From IMG/VR virus record IMGVR_UViG_3300029305_005185, positions 96,001-160,000 of that record: 64,000 nt of DNA; one strand, written 5' to 3'. The translations under genes were made by a program, and so were the position numbers. This DNA is from a virus. Its lineage: Duplodnaviria; Caudoviricetes. Of the stretch, positions 2,789 to 55,843 are shown one piece after another. Under the pieces are notes generated by a model. It was not told the origin of the DNA and did not search any database. It was given only the letters and a program-made list of their open reading frames with translations. The number at the start of each line of letters is the position of its first letter. The first letter of the stretch is position 1.

Positions 2789-2973
2789 TGGTAACATATC
2801 TCGCCCTTGCTAATCTCGTAGTTAGCACATTCAGTACCGTATGGTTTAGCCGCGACACCGATATTTACACTGTAACAGATGTTATCATGACTATGCTGTG
2901 CTGTGTACTTCCTATCATTCCCCTTTGCTATCTCTACCGTTGGTGTAACAAGTTTGTGAGAGGAGAAATCTAA
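2788..2973 (+). CDS. Small membrane protein
   Basis: Two hydrophobic segments; translationally coupled (TAATG). Confidence 0.6.
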   Translation: MVTYLALANLVVSTFSTVWFSRDTDIYTVTDVIMTMLCCVLPIIPLCYLYRWCNKFVRGEI

Positions 2974-2975
2974 CT

Positions 2976-3413
2976 ATGGAAGTTAAGACTATCTATATTG
3001 CCAATGATGGCACGGAGTTTGAAGATAAGGAAGAATGCCTTACCTATGAATCTTCTTTGACATCTGAATGCGATTTTGTCCAACTGTATGACAATGATGG
3101 CAAACTCATTGATTGGAATCCCGATGATTATGATGGTATGTGGGATCATCTCTATTACATCGTCATTGAACCGCACCGCGAAGAAGAAGCAGAAGAATGG
3201 TGGGCCAATTCCTTTGGCGTTATGCTTGGTGTTAATCCGTTCAGTGAAATGGATAACGACTGGAAAGCATGGAAACACCATTATCATGGTGACGAACCGA
3301 CCGTTCTTGCTTTTGACTTCGGAGGAAATGACAGTTGGATTATTTTCAATGAAGTCTATGACGAAGTAAAAGGCATTGTTCGCGGCCTTGACCTTGTGGA
3401 TGCTCTCGGTTGA
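2976..3413 (+). CDS. Hypothetical protein
   Basis: SD GAGGAG; YIANDGTEFEDKEECLTYE N-terminus common in small phage ORFs. Confidence 0.75.
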   Translation: MEVKTIYIANDGTEFEDKEECLTYESSLTSECDFVQLYDNDGKLIDWNPDDYDGMWDHLYYIVIEPHREEEAEEWWANSFGVMLGVNPFSEMDNDWKAWKHHYHGDEPTVLAFDFGGNDSWIIFNEVYDEVKGIVRGLDLVDALG

Positions 3414-49012: not shown

Positions 49013-49663
49013 ATGACAACAACAAGAATTCCCATTTATGATTTGCTAATTTTTCTTGATGAAAAGAGTGAAACTTTTGAAAGGAAAAATAACATTTTAG
49101 ATTTTGTTATAGATCATTATAAATGTTTAACAAATATAACTCTAAAGTTTTCAAAAGAATATGCAATGGAAACTTTATGTTTTTGTGATAACGGGCTAAT
49201 TGCCAATGGAAACTTCCCAGTAAAAGAAGGAATGTTAGTAAAAAATAAGAAAGGTGAATACGGCATTACATTCCAAGGATAGCACAGTTATGAGCTAGAT
49301 CCTAACCCAACACCTGTTTTATGGGTTTGGACATTAGATAGCAAAGGAATGTTGATTTCTGATTTTTTTAATGTAAATGATTGGATAAAGTGGGGGGCAA
49401 TGTCTTCTTTATATTAGTATTGTGACTATAAAGAAGGAATAGATTATAATCTTGGAGAAAGAGACATATCACGCGGCATGGTAGGAAAAGATGTATTGCT
49501 TATTCAATAGCATCTTTCTCTTTATGATGCCGATGTTCCTTTAACTGGCGAGTTTGAAGAAAAAACTGAAAATTTTATAAAAGGAATACAACGTATGCAC
49601 TTTAATTATGCTGATATAGATGGCGTGATAAAAAAAGAGCATCTTGATATTTATTTAAGGTGA
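49013..49663 (+). CDS. Protein with C-terminal peptidoglycan-binding domain; 3 TAG
   Basis: RGMVGKDVLLIQ(Q)HL..TGEFEEKT..IKGIQ..IDGVI. Confidence 0.7.
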
Positions 49664-49670
49664 TGCGATA

Positions 49671-51056
49671 GTGGATATTAAAGTTAAGTTATCTCGTGAA
49701 GAAAATATTCAATATTACGGCGCCACCGAAATCACAATAGACATAGAAGATTACTTATTAGGGGTGGTCCCTTCGGAAATAGGAAATGCAAATGTTGAGG
49801 CGTGCGCGGCTTAGGCAATAGCATCGCGAACGTATGCAATGAATACAGTAAAGACTAATGGGTATATTACTGATAAAAGTAGTATTCACTAGGCTTTTAG
49901 AGTAAGCAGGCTTACTGGATTTCCAAATGCTTATGAAGGAGTAAAGAAAACAAGAGGACAATTATTATATTATAATAATAAAATTGCGAAATGTTATTAT
50001 TGTGCTTCCAATGGTGGCCAAACCACTTCTTCAAAAGAACGTTGGGGCGGCGATTATGCTTATTTAATTTCCTAGCCCGACGAATATGATAAAGGGCCTA
50101 AAAATGGTCATGGAGTTGGATTGTCTCAACAAGGCGCCGCGGCTCGTGGAGTAGCCGGACATACATATGAATAGATTTTGTCTTTCTATTTTCCTGGAAC
50201 AAAAATTGTAAAGGAGGTGGAAGAAATGGCAACGAACAATGAAACAAAAGTTTTATCTTGGTTAGAAGAACGTATAGGCGATGGATATATTTATGGCGCA
50301 AAAGGACAAGTCGCTACTGGTGATTTTATTTTACAACAAATGGAACAATATCCAGAATATGTAAAATATGATGTAGTTTCTAAATGGATAAATAAAAAAG
50401 TTTGGGATTGCGCGACCTTAGTACGTTTCGCAATGAAAGAAGTCGGTATTTCTATGGTTAGTGGCGCTACCAGTTAGTGGAATAAAACTAATTGGCTTCG
50501 TAAAGGTAAGATTGCAGAATTGCCCAAAAATAAAATTTGCTGTTTATATCGTCGCACAGATGCAGGCATAATGTAGCACACTGGTGTTTATCTTGGCAAT
50601 GGCTACTTTATTGATGCTCGCGGTTCTTCTACTGGTGTTGTTAAAACTAAATTAGAAAAATATCCTTGGACCCATTGGGGTATTCCCAAAGGGTTGTATA
50701 CAGAAAAAGAGTTGGCAGACGCTTCTACGCCTGCTATTCCACAGGAGGTTTTGAAAGTGTTGTATAAAGCAAAAGTTATTGCAGAAAGTGGTTCTACTGT
50801 TCGCATGCGTAGTGTCGCATCTGGCTCTGCTTCTACTATTAAGAAGGTACCAGTTGGTTCAGAAGTTGAAGTTGTAGCAGAACAGCCAGAATGGAAGCAA
50901 ATTATATATAATGGCCAAACTGGTTTTATGATGGATGATTTCCTAGAAAAGATAGAGGAGGCGAAACCAAATGAGTACTATGTCAAAATCAAGTGCTCCT
51001 CAGCAGCGGAAGCCGAACGCCTCGCTAAACTTTTAGCAACAGCAGTAGCAAACTAA
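49671..51056 (+). CDS. Endolysin: SpoIID/LytB + NlpC/P60 + SH3b; 6 TAG
   Basis: EDYLLGVVPSE, AA(Q)AIASRTYA, GHGVGLSQQGA; WDCATLV, ATS(Q)W, HTGVYLG; VRMRS..GQTGFM. Confidence 0.9.
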
Positions 51057-51366
51057 TGAGGGTTTTTTGCGTAGGCTAATAACCAAAGCAAATGAACATA
51101 GCAAGAAACTTACTATTATTGATACAGTAATTTACGTATTTCTTATGATAGCGTTAATCGCAGTAATGATTATTTGGCCGCATATTGCTGATCATTGTGT
51201 AGATGCTATGGGCTATGTTACCACTGCTTTTGTAGCAGTAAGACTTGGTTATAGTGCAAAAGGCGCTGTTGAAAACTTTATGAAAATAAAATCAAATATA
51301 ACTTCACAGGGAGTTTCTAGCGTAATAGTCGAAGAGACAGTAAGTGAAGAAGAAACATTAGGATAA
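50971..51366 (+). CDS. Putative two-TM holin overlapping the endolysin 3' end; 2 TAG in a poly-Gln run
   Basis: SD GAGGAGG, MSTM..; TAG CAA CAG CAG TAG CAA; in frame with track ORF 51067. Confidence 0.7.
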
Positions 51367-51409
51367 AATTTTTTTTCTCCGATGAAAGTCGGGGGGGTTT
51401 TAGTAACAT

Positions 51410-52594
51410 ATGGCGACTAGTACGCTAAAAACAAGAATAAAACATAAAATTGATACTGCTTCCAATTGGGCAAGTTCTAGTCTTGTTCCATTGGAAGGTG
51501 AATTAATTATATATAAAGGCGATAAACCACAAATAAAAGTCGGTGATGGTTCTACTACAGTTGGAAGTTTACCATTTATCAAGGCCGGCAGTGACACAAC
51601 AATTACATAGGCATTAACAAGTGGAACGGAAATTGGTAGTATTAATATTGATGGAGTGGCAACGAAGTTGTATGCTCCTTCTACTATTGCTTGGAGTAGC
51701 GTGACTAGTAAGCCAAGTTACTATGATGCAAAAGCTATAAAATCTATTACTCGTTCTGGAACGACTTTTACCTGGACTTGTATGGATGGTACAACAGGGA
51801 CTTTTACATAGTAGGATAATAATACGACTTATTCGGCCGGAACTGGACTTACTCTTTCTGGAACTACATTTAGTTTAAACGCCACGGCAACAAAAACAGC
51901 ATTAGGATTGGGTAGTAATGCCTATACAAGTACTGCTTATTTGCCACTCACCGGTGGTTCGATGAGTGGAGCTATTGTAGCTTAGCCAAGTGCGAAAAAC
52001 ACTTTTTTATTATGGGGATCTTCGACAGATAAAAATTCATCTTATGACATCCCTTGGTATGGTTTGTCTTTTTATAATGATGGAGTATAGCAGGGAAATG
52101 CACTTGCACTGGCTAACTATTGGGGAATTAATTTTATTACTGCTGGAGATAGTAATACTCATTTATATCATAATGGAAATTTGATATTAAATACATCTAA
52201 TTATACCAATTACGCTCCAACCAAAACAGGTTCTGGTGCGAGCGGAACTTGGGGCATAAATATAACAGGATCTTCTGCAAGTTGTACTGGTAATGCGGCG
52301 AGAGCGGGATTTATTACTTGTGAAGATAACAGAGCTACTATGGCAACTCCAAATGAATATACAATGGGAGCAGATTTAGAGTTTAAATCTGCTGAAGCAA
52401 CTGGATTATCTGGTTATTCTGCTGTATTAACAGTAAAACCTTGGACTGATAGCTCAGGAGGCGTAGTTCATTAGTTAGCTTTTAATGCGTCTGGACTCTA
52501 TCATCGAATTTCCACTTCAAATTTAGCTTCTTGGGGATCTTGGTGCAAATTATGGCAAGCCGGAGATGCTGTTACTGGCGCAGTTTGGAATTAA
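51410..52594 (+). CDS. Tail fibre with Mtd_N domain; 6 TAG; ends GAVWN
   Basis: One frame; TAG at 51608, 51809, 51812, 51983, 52088, 52472; TFT(Q)(Q)DNNTTY. Confidence 0.85.
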
Positions 52595-52674
52595 AAATAA
52601 TAAATAAAATAACACAACCGGCGCCCTGAAAAGATGGGCGCCGCCATTCTTCTGAAATGATTGGAGGTTTTAAA

Positions 52675-54363
52675 ATGGCAAAATAGTTAAATGCAAGAAT
52701 AATTACAAAGCATGATATAGAAGCCAATTGGGAAAAAGCATTGACTTTTATTCCAAAATTAGGCGAAATCATTATTTATGAGACACCAGACAAAATAATT
52801 CCTAACAAATATGACTGGACTAGCATACCTAGATTAAAAATTGGCGATGGAAAAAGTACAATTAATGAATTGTTTTTTATTACCGATGCTTTTGTTTAGA
52901 AAAAAAATGGTTGGGATTTGTCTGAAAATAATTATACTGATACTCATTGGGGTATTGTAAATAAAATAGCAAATTTAGGTTATGAACCAAAATATACTGA
53001 TACAACTTACACCGCGGGAAAAGGTTTGGGCTTAAAAGTAGAAGAAGGAGAAAATGTTTTTTATAACACTGGTATCATTTCAATTTAGGGTTCAGAAAAA
53101 AACGGTTTTATTAAATATCGTTTAAATACTGGTCTTAATGATAGTGATTATAGGGACATTGAAATTGGCATTCCGGGCTTACAACAAACTGCTTTTACTC
53201 CTTTATCCAATTTCTTAACCTCAGATTCTTTAATAAAAATTAATAACTCTATTACTAAACTAGAATCAAGCACAACTCCCGGTTCATTGAAATACACTAA
53301 TGCTGTTGGAGAAACGGGTTTGGTCGCAGTTCCAGGATTGGGTAAGTTGGCATTTAAAGATGGATTTGATGGGGATTTTATTGAGGTTGTAGAAGTAGCT
53401 GTTTAGAGTAATTAGCCCAATGACGCTATTCCAATTTGGATTAATCCTAGTGGAGAAGATAATTTAGGAATATTAAAATATTATAATAGTTATACATAGT
53501 CTTATGTTAATATAGATATAGGAGTAAAAAAAATAACTCCACTTACTGGGGGCTTTTCAAAATATGGTTTTATTGCTACGGATGGTGCTACAGAAGAAAG
53601 CTATCAATTTGGAGTTTTAGGTATTAATAATAAAAGTGACGAACCTGGTACTTTATTGGTCGAATTTAATGGAAGCACTTATGATCTCGTACTTAAAACA
53701 AATCTTACTTTTTCTTCTGGAACACAAAACGGTAGCTTTTCAGTTACTTAGAATGGTGAAACTAAAAATATTCCAATTTATGGTCTTGGTTCTAATGCCT
53801 TTACTTCTACCGCCTATCTTCCTCTTGCAGGTGGTACTGTTACTGGTGTAACCGCTTTTTCAAATACAACAAATTCCACCTCAACTTCTACCGGCGCCGT
53901 TAAAATTTCAGGTGGCTTAGGCGTTGCAAAAGATATATATGGAGCTAAAGTTCATGGCTCTGTATATAATGACTATGCTGAATACCGTCAATCTGAAGAA
54001 CTTATTGAACCCGGATATATTGTTTATTCTGGTGACGATGGAATCTTACATAAAACTGTTGGACGTTTACAATTCTTTGAAGGTATAGTTTCCGACACTT
54101 TTGGTTTTTCAATCGGTAAAACAGATAAAGCTCAAACTCCACTAGCAGTGGCTGGACGCGTGCTTGTATATACAGATGAAGAACTCCATGCCGGCAATGT
54201 AGTTTGCGCTGGTCCGAATGGTAAAGCATGTAAAATGACAAAATAGGAAATTAAAGACCACCCAGATCGTATAGTTGGAGTTGTTTCTGAAGTTCCGAGT
54301 TATGAAACTTGGGGAGAAGAAAATATTTCTGTAAATGGAAGAGTTTGGATTAGAGTAAAATAA
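52675..54363 (+). CDS. Tail fibre with Mtd_N and peptidase G2-like chaperone; 8 TAG
   Basis: SD GGAGG; MAK(Q)LNARIITKHDIEANW; GSVYNDYAEYR..PDRIVGVVSE; invisible in the standard-code track. Confidence 0.85.
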
Positions 54364-54449: not shown

Positions 54450-54767
54450 ATGAAGTTTTATTCTGAGTACACTAAGAAGTTCTATGACACTCCCGAAGCT
54501 TGCGAAACCGCCGAACATGAATATATTCTTGCTGCAGAAGCAAAGAAGAATGAACAGGCTGCTATGCTTGAAGCCCTAAATGTTGCCAAGGCAAATCATG
54601 CCGAAGCTCAGGAAGTTGCCGCCGCAGCCAATAAGGCAAGTCGCGAAGCATATAACGAACTTATGAAGCTTGTGCGCGCCTACGCTGCGAAGTATGGTAC
54701 TGTTCCTAAGGAGTTTAATAATCTTCAGTTCCTGACTGAAATGACGCTTTCAAATTTTTTGGGCTAA
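54450..54767 (+). CDS. Ala-rich coiled-coil hypothetical protein
   Basis: Promoter TTGACT 54368 / TATAAT 54391; SD AAAGGTG. Confidence 0.75.
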   Translation: MKFYSEYTKKFYDTPEACETAEHEYILAAEAKKNEQAAMLEALNVAKANHAEAQEVAAAANKASREAYNELMKLVRAYAAKYGTVPKEFNNLQFLTEMTLSNFLG

Positions 54768-54773
54768 AAAAAT

Positions 54774-54802
54774 TTGACAACTCCGAAAATTTCGGTTATA
54801 AT
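54774..54802 (+). promoter_or_regulatory. Consensus SigA promoter upstream of the small ORF and suppressor tRNA
   Basis: TTGACA 54774, TATAAT 54797, 17-bp spacer. Confidence 0.85.
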
Positions 54803-54837
54803 ATAATCACAGAAAAGGAAAGGGAGGAATGATATTT

Positions 54838-54900
54838 ATGAAAGTATTTATTATTTCTAAAAACGAGGAAACTCCACCTAACTCCTATGGGTGCCGTTAA
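54838..54900 (+). CDS. 20-aa small ORF MKVFIISKNEETPPNSYGCR
   Basis: SD GGGAGG; own promoter; stop lies in a hairpin loop. Confidence 0.55.
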   Translation: MKVFIISKNEETPPNSYGCR

Positions 54901-54923
54901 GGCGGCACCCCACTTTTCTTTTT
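54889..54923 (+). terminator. Terminator-like hairpin directly upstream of the tRNA
   Basis: GGGTGCCG-TTAAGG-CGGCACCC then CACTTTTCTTTTT. Confidence 0.65.
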
Positions 54924-54927
54924 ATAT

Positions 54928-55018
54928 TGGGGTATAGTTTAATGGTAAAACAGCGGTCTCTAAAACCGTAATCATTCTGCGTGAGCAGTTCTGAGTTCGA
55001 ATCTCAGTACCCCTGCCA
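54928..55018 (+). tRNA. Amber suppressor tRNA (anticodon CUA), probably Gln-accepting
   Basis: Acceptor TGGGGTA/TACCCCT-G-CCA; anticodon arm GCGGT-CTCTAAA-ACCGT; T arm CTGAG-TTCGAAT-CTCAG; 21-nt variable region. Confidence 0.93.
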
Positions 55019-55088
55019 TTTAAGGCGCATTCAGCAATTTATAGTTTTTTGATAGTGAATGGACTTACAAAAATTGCGTCTTGAAAAT

Positions 55089-55117
55089 TTGACAAATTTA
55101 AAAATTTATTATATAAT
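55089..55117 (+). promoter_or_regulatory. Consensus SigA promoter for the ncRNA region
   Basis: TTGACA 55089, TATAAT 55112. Confidence 0.85.
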
Positions 55118-55124
55118 ATATCTA

Positions 55125-55211: not shown

Positions 55212-55843
55212 AAAAGGCTATATTTATTATTCAATATAACTCGGTGAAGTCGGATGACTTTCCGGCCGAGGCTGGTCGTATAACGAGCAGGTGAAGCCAC
55301 GACGGATACGTTTTGGCAACTGTTCTCTTGGTTGTATAGTGATATACACTGACGAGTGCGAACGCACAAGGTTAAGACCAGGCACTTCTACTTTCGCCAT
55401 ATAAGGTATGGACTTATCGCCAGAGCAATAGAAAGCACGGTGAATAGCCGCGCCGAATCCAATCGCCCCTTGGTTGGTGACCGTGGGACAGAGCTTTTGG
55501 AAACAACCACAATCTGGTTTTGTAGTGATGTTGAGAAATCAACTATAAGATAAGGCCGCAGTGCGAGTAGCCCAGATACAACGGATTACAAGAAAGATGT
55601 AATGACTTTACAAATAATTCTGAATGTCGGGTGAAAGTTGTGGGTAATCATTCCCACACGAGGATTGAGCTAATAAGGCCACTTGGTGGCCGAGGGTAGC
55701 AAGGCCATGGAAATTGGCTAGGGCAAGAAGTATGAGGTTCGCTACCACATACTCAGACTTGTCTTCTCGGTGACTGAATAATATGGAAGATTGAAACAGA
55801 AGCAACCCGAAGGGGTATATGTGAATAATAAATATAGTCTTTT
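55212..55843 (+). ncRNA. Large structured RNA, ROOL-like
   Basis: 632 nt closed by a 22-bp terminal helix; no credible ORF; higher GC than flanks; next to a tRNA. Confidence 0.7.

Follow-up and report, generated by a model that had tools for sequence, protein, structure and literature searches.

The present analysis suggests that the single tRNA encoded in the window, i.e., the whole 64,000-nucleotide stretch of phage DNA that was analyzed, is a UAG-decoding glutamine tRNA whose extra arm is a spare anticodon arm, read by the enzyme that charges the tRNA with glutamine. We put the probability of this reading at about 0.6. On sequence grounds, the tRNA is a member of a class that is widespread among phage suppressor tRNAs; in its members the extra arm takes the form of a small anticodon arm, with the anticodon of the amino acid for which the stop codon has come to stand.

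Anatomy of the Suppressor tRNA

The gene and the parts of it that are needed below are as follows.

54928–55018, + strand: suppressor tRNA gene, 91 nt, anticodon CUA, CCA end encoded (ARAGORN, Rfam tRNA model, cloverleaf fold)
54928–54934, + strand: 5′ strand of the acceptor stem, UGGGGUA, which pairs with UACCCCU at 55008–55014; G73 is at 55015 (sequence)
54953–54969, + strand: decoding arm, stem GCGGU/ACCGU and loop CUCUAAA, anticodon CUA at 54960–54962 (ARAGORN); invariant in 23 of 23 class members
54970–54990, + strand: extra (variable) region AAUCAUUCUGCGUGAGCAGUU, 21 nt (sequence, folds)

ARAGORN finds this tRNA alone in the window, with the anticodon CUA at tRNA position 33, and the Rfam tRNA model RF00005 matches 54928–55015 with 60.5 bits (E 1.3e-10, gathering score 29). 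The fold is that of an elongator tRNA, namely a cloverleaf with the T arm CUGAG-UUCGAAU-CUCAG, a D stem GUUU/AAAC of 4 bp closing the 7-nt loop AAUGGUA, a decoding loop of the canonical 7 nt with U33 and A37 around CUA, and six of the seven acceptor pairs. The acceptor, as read from the sequence, starts with the open U1·U72 mismatch, followed by G2–C71, G3–C70, G4–C69, and G5–C68. The coordinates of the initial annotation, and its description of U1·U72, G2–C71, G3–C70, G73, and a 21-nt variable region, agree with this anatomy.

The core of tRNA-Pyl is atypical, with a short variable loop, a small D loop lacking GG, and no T-loop consensus. ARAGORN labels the gene tRNA-Pyl from its anticodon alone, and the GG in the D loop, the T loop UUCGAAU, and the 21-nt variable region speak against this assignment.

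By the element rules given for E. coli GlnRS (PMC9976931), the sequence carries the open 1–72 pair, G3–C70, G73, G10 of the 10–25 pair, and U35. The G36 element of tRNA-Gln is absent, the decoding arm having A36, and a G36-like base is found only in the extra arm, in the CUG at 54977–54979.

A Class of Long-Arm Suppressor tRNAs

A pattern scan of viral contigs, in which the arm was left unconstrained, gave 25 distinct CUA tRNAs with a long arm, a count that includes the window tRNA, G001, and L211. The motif U[CU]UG is present in the arm of 22 of these, the phage tRNA among them, and UCCA in none (0/25). The long-arm UCA tRNAs, which are UGA suppressors, display the opposite pattern: UCCA, with the Trp anticodon, in all 17 distinct sequences and U[CU]UG in none (Fisher p = 4.5e-9 for the split). 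As a control, U followed by the tRNA's own anticodon was found in the variable region of 6 of 97 other distinct tRNAs having regions of at least 13 nt. It is because of this split between CUA and UGA suppressors that the arm is most likely a spare anticodon arm.

The arm was further characterized by a count anchored on the motif, which covers 23 distinct CUA tRNAs. In the spare loop, U33 is kept in 22, U35 and G36 in all 23, and A37 in 20, and position 34 is always C or U, both of which give Gln anticodons. The three closing pairs are formed in 23, 23, and 21 of the 23 sequences, with 4, 3, and 4 pair types, respectively. The spare position 36 lies 10–11 nt from the T stem across the class, and 11 nt from it in the phage tRNA. 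RNAalifold, run on a MAFFT alignment, gives the same picture of a 3-bp stem with a 7-nt loop and counts 5, 5, and 3 double-sided changes for the three pairs. In that alignment 5 of the 23 sequences are one column off register within the arm; the "broken" cells reported by RNAalifold (2 and 5) hence stem in part from the alignment itself, and the anchored count was used instead. Judged from these alignments, the spare arm is conserved and covaries across the class, and the class-conserved feature is the in-register anticodon-like loop with a Gln anticodon rather than a GNRA hairpin.

The acceptor end differs between the two groups as well. All 23 CUA members have a weak or mismatched 1–72 pair, and 14 of 17 UCA members have A–U there; G73 is shared by both (22/23 and 16/17, respectively).

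Competing Folds of the Extra Arm

Two folds of the extra arm were considered for the phage tRNA.

54972–54984, + strand: spare anticodon arm, stem UCA (54972–54974)/UGA (54982–54984) and loop UUCUGCG (54975–54981)
54977–54988, + strand: competing hairpin CUGC-GUGA-GCAG, the minimum-free-energy fold of the variable region

In the first, the loop presents the Gln anticodon CUG 11 nt upstream of the T stem, and the RNAalifold consensus, which includes the row of the phage tRNA, forms this 3-bp stem and 7-nt loop. The second would bury the spare CUG. The calculated cloverleaf energies are −25.0 kcal/mol with the GNRA hairpin, −18.9 kcal/mol with the spare arm, and −19.1 kcal/mol without it, i.e., the spare arm is about energy-neutral and the hairpin fold lies ca. 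6 kcal/mol below it. The phage arm has the 7-nt loop, the U before the Gln anticodon, the T-stem spacing, and at least three closing, covarying pairs of the class. It lacks the A after the anticodon (position 37 is C, compared to A in 20 of the 23 class members), and the spare arm is not its favored fold.

The closest homologue, L033, has the arm CCA-UUCUGAG-UGG, in which the outer pair U–A is replaced by C–G. This sequence can also form a rival helix, CUGA/UCAG, whose fourth pair covaries with that of the phage tRNA, so that the two closest sequences support both folds. Searches for homologues with the same arm, using four patterns, yielded only L033 and L211, the latter a different member, in viral contigs and none in metagenome contigs, and the choice of fold for this arm hence rests on one close homologue. 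With its 3 bp, its C37, and a rival hairpin of greater stability, the spare arm of the phage tRNA is a marginal structure, which may be masked, act as a switch, or be in partial decay.

We have also considered the view of the initial annotation, in which the molecule is a plain suppressor like su7, the E. coli amber suppressor of tRNA-Trp. Gln identity would then come only from U35, the open 1–72 pair, G2–C71, G3–C70, and G73, the arm would be a structural GNRA hairpin that adds stability or keeps TrpRS or other enzymes away, and UUCUG would be a leftover or a coincidence. We regard this alternative as possible though rather unlikely. The energies given above speak for it, as does the matching helix of L033, and GNRA-capped long arms without an anticodon motif do occur in other phage tRNAs, such as the tRNA-His of L057 and the CUA tRNA of L050. 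The E. coli suppressor, moreover, accepts Gln with no extra arm (PMC9976931). On the other hand, most of the 22 CUA tRNAs that share the motif are unable to form such a hairpin, and the UGA suppressors have CCA at the same place. In shuffles of the phage tRNA's own arm, U-U-C-U-G in register and closed by three pairs appears in 0.24% of cases, as compared to 19% for any 4-bp hairpin. The GNRA hairpin stands as the minimum-free-energy fold, without conservation across the related suppressor tRNAs. The frequency of 4-bp hairpins in the shuffles, the class-wide conservation of an anticodon-like loop, and the lack of a synthetase match in the phage all argue against the earlier proposal that this hairpin recruits a dedicated synthetase.

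Relatives and Public Reads

Relatives were picked by terminase, giving 11 loci, and five whole records were searched with the tRNA. Of these, only G001 contains a match, a CUA tRNA of 98 nt with a 5-bp spare arm, whose decoding and spare arms are alike in both stem and loop sequences. BLAST gave no match to the tRNA in G003 and G004, which is no proof of absence. Among public reads, the RNA contigs of run X15 cover only 54929–54969, the Trp-like 5′ half, and continue as ordinary short tRNAs of other organisms. In a related contig from run X4, the 18 differences listed, out of 21, are all in the flanks and none is inside the tRNA; as three are unlisted, a total of zero inside the tRNA is unproven.

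The likeness of the two arms in G001 would also be expected if the arm were a neutral remnant, now functionless, that was left behind when the anticodon arm was duplicated in tandem or when the gene recombined with that of a second suppressor tRNA, and the weak arm and changed position 37 of the phage tRNA fit such an origin. We nevertheless find it improbable, because loop positions 33, 35, and 36 are retained in 22–23 of 23 members while the closing pairs and acceptor stems vary, and because position 34 is limited to the two bases that complete a Gln anticodon. The confinement of the listed X4 differences to the flanks points the same way, with the reservation on the three unlisted ones.

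Amino Acid Inserted at TAG and Origin of the tRNA Body

The phage genome (180,867 bp) uses TAG as a sense codon. When TAG is read as sense, the coverage by ORFs of at least 100 aa is 0.93 instead of 0.73, and the longest ORF grows to 4096 aa, as compared to 1339 aa otherwise. In the control with TAA as sense the coverage is 0.956, but the longest ORF reaches only 1461 aa, and with TGA as sense the coverage is 0.798. A crude set of 195 ORFs contains 388 in-frame TAGs, and the present tRNA is the sole one with CUA among the 27 tRNAs of the genome (ARAGORN, default settings). The identification of the gene as an amber suppressor is borne out by these results.

To assign the codon, 34 TAG sites were compared across 11 related loci, giving 145 cells: Q 66, TAG 11, E 9, K 8, T 8, L 8, W 4, and S 2, with Y 1 also among the 134 cells that are not TAG. 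The log-likelihood is −291 for Q, the next best being H with −433. The rate of Q at TAG sites is similar to that at which genuine Q is conserved (262 of 606 cells). In DegT, a TAG is aligned with an invariant Gln, Q being found in 5 of 5 PDB homologues. Since Pfam gave no match for 9 of 10 virion-module proteins, the amino acid is deduced from the related phages and from DegT. The comparison with related phages indicates that TAG is Gln, and the amino acid inserted is most likely Gln, in agreement with the earlier proposal and with the precedent of the E. coli tRNA-Trp amber suppressor.

The body of the tRNA has a different affinity. The 33-nt string of the D and anticodon arms, with CTA changed to CCA, has exact matches in three scanned species genomes, always within tRNA-Trp(CCA); the carriers are Alloiococcus otitis, a member of the Bacillota, and two CPR bacteria. 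The acceptor stem of the A. otitis tRNA-Trp is identical to that of the phage tRNA except for A1. Against a set of 568 distinct phage tRNAs and the phage's own tRNAs, the best body identities are 0.86 for UCA suppressors, 0.83 for tRNA-Trp(CCA), and 0.74 for the best tRNA-Gln(UUG). The resemblance to Bacillota tRNA-Trp that the initial annotation had noticed is hence recovered both in the exact 33-mer with C35 and in the Trp-type top matches, and the body is, by these comparisons, tRNA-Trp-like with A1→U and C35→U.

A tRNA with such a body might have retained Trp identity (G73, G5–C68, and A9 being further Trp-like features), TAG then meaning Trp. G73 combined with a long arm, on the other hand, recalls tRNA-Ser, and SerRS could charge the tRNA through these two features, TAG then meaning Ser. 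Both variants appear very improbable. W and S account for 4 and 2 of the 134 cells, whereas genuine W is conserved in 205 of 276, and the 4-bp/7-nt D arm and the short extra stem are unlike those of class II tRNAs. Of the Trp identity set, i.e., the CCA anticodon, A1–U72, and G73 (PMC9976931), the phage tRNA, with CUA and U1·U72, retains only G73, both C35 and the A1–U72 pair being lost.

It is hardly credible that the extra segment is excised from the transcript like an intron to leave a tRNA of normal length: the tRNA-Gln(UUG) gene of the phage is indeed interrupted by a 91-nt insert, but the present segment sits in the variable region, outside the anticodon loop, exceeds a normal variable loop by only ~16 nt, and has its loop motif and register conserved across the class.

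Proposed Mechanism of Charging

In the proposed scenario, a Bacillota-type tRNA-Trp would have acquired the C35→U change (CCA to CUA), A1→U, which opens the 1–72 pair as a Gln-type feature, and a small second arm between the anticodon and T arms. The spare triplet would be CUG or UUG in tRNAs converting UAG to Gln and CCA in those converting UGA to Trp. The host enzyme would recognize the Gln anticodon of the spare arm in combination with the weak 1–72 pair, G2–C71, G3–C70, and G73, and the CUA of the decoding arm would be read by the ribosome, such that the in-frame TAGs of late genes (tail fibers, lysin, and other virion genes) would be translated as glutamine. The charging enzyme could be GlnRS or, where GlnRS is absent, a nondiscriminating GluRS followed by GatCAB. 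We infer from the sequences that the tRNA is charged with Gln and that the arm is the handle of the enzyme. GlnRS identity resides in U35, G36, and the acceptor end; mutation of the anticodon lowers kcat by factors of up to 10^4–10^5 (PMC9976931).

Several observations speak against this proposal. An arm of 3–5 bp protruding from the tRNA core has no obvious reach to the anticodon-binding domain of a synthetase in the normal L-shape, and a rearrangement must therefore be assumed. A. otitis, the bacterium with the best-matching tRNA-Trp, is furthermore without GlnRS, its best glnS match scoring 49.8 bits against a cutoff of 425.8. Finally, GluRS of the B. subtilis type reads chiefly a modified U34 (PMC9976931), which a spare CUG loop would not provide.

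A further, tentative and on balance doubtful, suggestion is that natural tRNAs with a second anticodon arm uncouple decoding from charging, the synthetase reading the spare arm and the ribosome the CUA arm. The spacing between the spare arm and the T arm is the canonical one, and in the enzyme-bound state the spare arm could take over the stacking position of the decoding arm. In the phage and in L033, the CUGC/GCAG pairing would make charging switchable. Pairing of the spare CUG in cis with the downstream CAG could then control the timing of the translation of TAG-containing late genes.

Relation to Known Systems

Phages that read TAG as Gln ("code 15": crAss-like, Lak, Agate, and others, phAss-1) likewise have a CUA tRNA and in-frame TAGs in late genes, with Gln inferred (Borges et al., bioRxiv 10.1101/2021.08.26.457843; PMC10607447; PMC10879173). 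In these systems, too, charging by the host is assumed because there is no phage synthetase. Neither an additional arm nor a further anticodon-like loop is mentioned in their main-text passages, and PMC10607447 and PMC10879173 do not use the word "variable" in their main texts. A natural tRNA with a second anticodon arm was not found in the literature searched, which comprised openly available main texts. Phage CUA suppressor tRNAs with Gln inferred are thus known, and what appears to be new here is a natural suppressor tRNA with a second arm bearing the cognate anticodon.

The phage tRNA resembles su7 in combining the body of tRNA-Trp with a CCA-to-CUA anticodon change. However, su7 is a laboratory mutant with a normal short variable loop and A1–U72, whereas the phage tRNA has U1·U72 and a second arm with CUG, and is a natural, fixed part of the code. 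In the E. coli tRNA-Trp amber suppressor, U35 is the element through which GlnRS accepts the molecule (PMC9976931). Closer in design are amber-suppressor allo-tRNAs, in which an engineered "pseudo-anticodon" arm in the V-arm raised charging via an anticodon-binding domain (Mukai 2020, PMC7590224). As described there, that case is man-made, relies on HisRS fused to an extra anticodon-binding domain, and has a modest effect; the phage design is natural and widespread and would use unmodified host enzymes.

With class II tRNAs (Ser, Leu, bacterial Tyr, Sec) the phage tRNA shares a length of ~90 nt and a base-paired arm between the anticodon and T arms. In these tRNAs the long variable arm goes with a class II D arm and the matching discriminator base. 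The phage tRNA has instead a class I-type D arm (4-bp stem, 7-nt loop), an extra stem of 3–5 bp, and a conserved anticodon-like heptamer loop, and Ser, Leu, and Tyr are unfavored at TAG sites (2, 8, and 1 of 134 cells); an assignment to class II was accordingly rejected.

Synthetases also bind mimics of anticodon arms in mRNA leaders, such as the ThrRS operator, and thereby regulate mRNA translation. These are likewise anticodon-like hairpins outside the anticodon arm of a tRNA, but they lie in mRNA, while in the phage the mimic would be part of the very tRNA whose charging it directs.

How phage suppressor tRNAs with changed anticodons are efficiently charged is a question left open by Borges et al. 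(bioRxiv 10.1101/2021.08.26.457843). GlnRS and TrpRS rely heavily on the anticodon, and phage suppressors have hundreds of stop codons to read. If confirmed, a spare arm on which the enzyme finds the original anticodon would answer this question; the arm motif may tell the host charging enzyme which amino acid to load. Such an arm would also represent a natural separation of decoding from tRNA identity, and hence a design rule for genetic code expansion, and the spare triplet would give annotators a direct read-out of the amino acid of a recoded stop codon.

Neighborhood and Phage Gene Content

The following features surround the gene.

54774–54802, + strand: promoter-like site TTGACA-17-TATAAT, upstream of the tRNA and closer to it than any other such site on that side (a 12/12 consensus match only)
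54829–54900, + strand: short ORF, 23 codons from the first ATG, its last codons and TAA stop lying inside the terminator-like hairpin (sequence)
54889–54910, + strand: terminator-like hairpin of 9 pairs, 7 of them G–C, followed by a T-rich tract and ending 17 nt before the tRNA
55089–55117: consensus promoter of the ROOL RNA (promoter scan)
55216–55836, + strand: ROOL RNA, a neighbor of the tRNA (Rfam RF03087, 330.4 bits)

A ROOL RNA is also found near the suppressor tRNA in the relative G001. The phage genome has no match to PF00749, PF00579, PF00587, GatB_N, or RF-1, i.e., the phage is without a synthetase, GatB, or release factor of its own. Its lysin carries SpoIID, NlpC/P60, and SH3 domains, and from these domains, the tRNA-Trp match, and the ROOL RNA, our guess is that the host belongs to the Bacillota.

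Glutamine at TAG codons

The window forms bases 96001–160000 of a single record of 180,867 bp (G+C 36.5%), rated "complete" by CheckV. When TAG is read as sense, ORFs of at least 100 aa cover 0.93 of the genome instead of 0.73, and the longest of them grows from 1339 to 4096 aa. Reading TGA as sense brings a small gain only (coverage 0.80). With TAA the coverage reaches 0.96, yet the longest ORF is just 1461 aa, and the gain is to be expected because TAA is the commonest stop. In-frame TAGs number 388 in a crude set of 195 ORFs, with 116 within one virion gene of 4079 aa; among the recoded genes in the window are tail-fibre genes, a lysin, and a DegT aminotransferase.

The alignments assign TAG to glutamine in this phage. 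One of the four TAGs of DegT aligns with a Gln kept in 5/5 solved homologues, the other three lying opposite E/D/K, opposite K/R, and opposite a variable position. The virion module was aligned to 11 related loci, found via terminase, in which 34 TAG sites give 145 cells: Q 66, TAG 11, E 9, K 8, T 8, L 8, N 6, W 4, S 2, and the remaining residues fewer. In the reverse comparison, TAG sites of the relatives face Q in the window phage at 31/75 cells. Scoring with substitution profiles derived from the same alignments gives log-likelihoods of −291 for Q and −433 for the runner-up, H. Genuine Q is kept at 262/606 cells, about equal to the Q rate at TAG sites, and genuine W at 205/276. The amino-acid order at TAG is unchanged with three non-redundant loci alone.

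Anatomy and origin of the suppressor tRNA

A single tRNA was called in the window by ARAGORN; it scores 60.5 bits against the Rfam tRNA model.

Features of the suppressor tRNA and its upstream gene (window coordinates)
49013–54363: TAG-recoded lysin carrying SpoIID, NlpC/P60, and SH3 domains, a short way upstream of the tRNA
54928–55018, + strand: candidate UAG suppressor tRNA, anticodon CUA
Acceptor stem: UGGGGUA/UACCCCU; U1·U72 open; G2–C71, G3–C70, G4–C69, and G5–C68 paired
D arm: stem of 4 bp, loop AAUGGUA
Anticodon arm: stem of 5 bp, loop CUCUAAA
Variable region: 21 nt, AAUCAUUCUGCGUGAGCAGUU
T arm: normal
3′ end: G73, CCA encoded

Each item described in the initial annotation was confirmed on the sequence and the cloverleaf. 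The body, taken as the tRNA minus its anticodon and variable region, was compared with 568 distinct phage tRNAs, and also with the set encoded by this phage. Top matches are Trp-type UGA-suppressor tRNAs (0.86) and tRNA-Trp(CCA) (0.83), the best tRNA-Gln(UUG) reaching 0.74. With U35 changed to C, the 33-nt string of the D and anticodon arms occurs exactly in three species genomes, always within tRNA-Trp; in one of them, Alloiococcus otitis (Bacillota), the tRNA-Trp acceptor is identical to that of the window tRNA but for A1. Given these body matches and the exact string, the sequence is that of a Bacillota-type tRNA-Trp that has gained an arm and the changes A1→U and C35→U.

According to the review PMC9976931, GlnRS recognizes U35, G36, the 1–72, 3–70, and 10–25 pairs, and the discriminator; Trp identity resides in the first pair, G73, and the anticodon; and Gln is the amino acid loaded onto the amber suppressor derived from E. 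coli tRNA-Trp. By these rules, A1→U and C35→U would shift the tRNA from Trp towards Gln identity, in agreement with the initial annotation. Its broader proposal of a Trp-derived amber suppressor inserting Gln is supported by indirect evidence, namely the body matches, the identity elements, and the Q at TAG sites.

In three public sequencing runs (X2, X3, and X4), contig depth goes up 20–40-fold at 54905–54986, over the 5′ half of the tRNA only, beyond which the contigs turn into short tRNAs of the ordinary kind with ...ACCCCUG at their end. This pattern indicates that, in abundant bacteria of those samples, the 5′ half of tRNA-Trp is nearly identical, a possible clue to the host. The upstream region (54774–54927) contains a terminator-like hairpin (54889–54910), with no promoter-like site between it and the tRNA, and a 23-codon ORF (54829–54900) ends within this hairpin. 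Synthesis of the tRNA may therefore rely on read-through that is coupled to the short ORF being translated.

A probable second, glutamine-type anticodon arm in the variable region

The extra arm is best taken for a copy of the Gln anticodon arm that is weak or can be masked. Viral contigs were scanned with a pattern in which nothing but the T loop and the CUA anticodon arm was fixed, which gave 73 loci with 76 CUA tRNA genes and 22 distinct sequences of 86–93 nt. Together with the window tRNA, a 98-nt CUA tRNA from G001 (a related phage), and that of locus L211, these form a set of 25 distinct long-arm CUA tRNAs. U-(C/U)-U-G is present in the extra region of 22/25 and UCCA in 0/25; the remaining ones are L046, with C-U-U-G, and L018 and L050, of another, class II-like type.

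For position counts, 23 sequences were anchored on the motif. The seven positions of this spare loop are C/U, U (22), C (16) or U (7), U (23), G (23), A (20), and A (19), and the loop reads as that of tRNA-Gln with anticodon CUG or UUG. The three loop-closing pairs are formed in 23/23, 23/23, and 21/23 members, with several pair types at each. Spare position 36 (anticodon-loop numbering) lies 10–11 nt from the T stem, compared to 11–12 nt for position 36 of an ordinary tRNA with a 4–5-nt variable loop. Independently, RNAalifold on a plain MAFFT alignment places a 3-bp stem and a 7-nt loop at the extra arm, with 5, 5, and 3 double-sided changes in its pairs, the window row pairing UCA/UGA. Two-armed suppressor tRNAs form a widespread class, of which the window tRNA is a member and which is apparently undescribed in the literature covered; the published phAss-1 genome holds a member annotated merely as tRNA-Sup-CTA.

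Many contigs carry two adjacent CUA tRNAs, one armless (75–78 nt) and one of 91 nt with the spare Gln arm (L005, L034, L044, L052, L058, L060, L061, L065, L211, and L215:314–482, the last being phAss-1). Two further long-arm CUA kinds (L018, L056, and L062, 86 nt; L050, 88 nt) have class II-like D arms and no Gln-like loop, and may insert another amino acid at UAG. A cow-rumen-4 RNA (Rfam RF02948, 60.7 bits) is located at L043:5857–5922, ~400 nt from a long-arm suppressor tRNA.

UGA suppressors and controls

If the arm shows the anticodon of the amino acid given to the stop codon, UGA suppressors should show CCA. A scan for tRNAs having both a long arm and a UCA anticodon loop, the arm being unconstrained, gave at least 80 loci and at least 17 distinct tRNAs of 93–100 nt, whose spare loop is (G/C)UCCAAA, closed by ~5 pairs. 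Among the matches listed, U-C-C-A is found in the extra arm of 17/17 and U(C/U)UG in 0/17, and the 2 × 2 table of spare motif versus decoding anticodon, its UCA side taken among those matches, gives a Fisher p of 4.5e-9.

The acceptor ends of the two groups also differ in the expected direction. The 1–72 pair is weak or mismatched in 23/23 Gln-type members (U·U 6, U–A 6, A·C 6, A–U 3, U·C 1, U·G 1) and is A–U, the Trp pair, in 14/17 Trp-type members among the matches listed; G73 is near-universal in both groups (for the Trp-type, among the matches listed). In a control set of 97 further distinct tRNAs, each with at least 13 nt of variable region, U followed by the tRNA's own anticodon occurs in the variable region of 6, U(C/U)UG in 5, and UCCA in 4.

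Extra arms of 13–20 nt, some GNRA-looped, are also seen on phage tRNAs of isotypes normally having short variable loops: tRNA-His (L057, 86 nt), tRNA-Cys (L027, 86 nt), tRNA-Ile(UAU) (L046, 92 nt, extra-arm loop CUCACAA), tRNA-Arg (L072, 93 nt), and tRNA-Met (L037 and L054, 87–89 nt).

Two competing folds in the window tRNA

The spare arm of the window tRNA is UCA-UUCUGCG-UGA, with CUG at 54977–54979, 11 nt ahead of the T stem. With three pairs, and C rather than A after the triplet, it is a marginal class member. The CUGC-GUGA-GCAG hairpin noted in the initial annotation is present and is the minimum-free-energy fold, at a predicted −25.0 kcal/mol, and would bury the CUG. The cloverleaf has −18.9 kcal/mol with the spare arm and −19.1 kcal/mol without it, i.e., the arm is about neutral. 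Among 100,000 shuffles of the arm, 0.24% contain the in-register motif and the three pairs that close it, compared to 19% for any 4-bp Watson–Crick hairpin.

The closest homologue, at locus L033, shares U1·U72 and the anticodon stem. Its spare arm is CCA-UUCUGAG-UGG, the outer pair changing from U–A to C–G; a CUGA/UCAG helix equivalent to the hairpin is possible as well, its fourth pair covarying. The two closest sequences hence back both folds. In this member the spare arm may be masked, may act as a switch, or may be in decay. For a related contig from run X4, 18 of the 21 differences from the window are listed; they fall in 54700–55121, none of them within the tRNA. L033 further contains end-to-end matches to the Rfam tRNA model at 2137–2330 (194 nt) and 2876–3006 (131 nt), suggesting tRNA genes with large inserts.

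Charging of the tRNA

Profile searches of the phage genome, in which the positive controls were detected every time, found no GlnRS/GluRS, TrpRS/TyrRS, or class IIa synthetase catalytic domain, no GatB, and no release factor, so host enzymes must charge the tRNA. No GlnRS was found in A. otitis, the source of the best tRNA-Trp match; in a host of this kind, charging would need a non-discriminating GluRS and GatCAB. According to the same review, B. subtilis GluRS reads mainly a modified U34 and the amidotransferase reads U1–A72. A CUG spare loop may suit GlnRS better. We infer that the spare arm would serve as a handle for the synthetase.

Full-text searches of openly accessible main texts brought up no description of a naturally occurring tRNA bearing two anticodon arms, and papers on recoded phages, in the text available, handle suppressor tRNAs as ordinary. 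The nearest case in that literature was engineered, with a pseudo-anticodon arm placed in the V-arm of an amber suppressor (Mukai 2020, PMC7590224).

A possible second UAG reader and the ROOL neighbour

The phage's only tRNA-Gln(UUG) gene (L079:17722–17887, genome 177722–177887) is interrupted by a 91-nt insert after the first two letters of the anticodon loop. ARAGORN at a relaxed threshold reads the insert as a long-arm tRNA(CUA) that has A73 and CCA. It equals the window tRNA at 15/17 bases of the D arm and 53/91 overall, and may be a second UAG reader.

Features downstream of the suppressor tRNA (window coordinates)
55089–55117: promoter-like site, perfect TTGACA-17-TATAAT, ROOL's own
55216–55836: ROOL RNA, full-length, 330 bits, 198 nt downstream of the tRNA

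ROOL is found in G001 too (L092:1981–2571, 337 bits), within the tRNA array carrying its suppressor tRNA, and a ROOL variant turns up at 55240–55830 in the metatranscriptome contigs of run X15.
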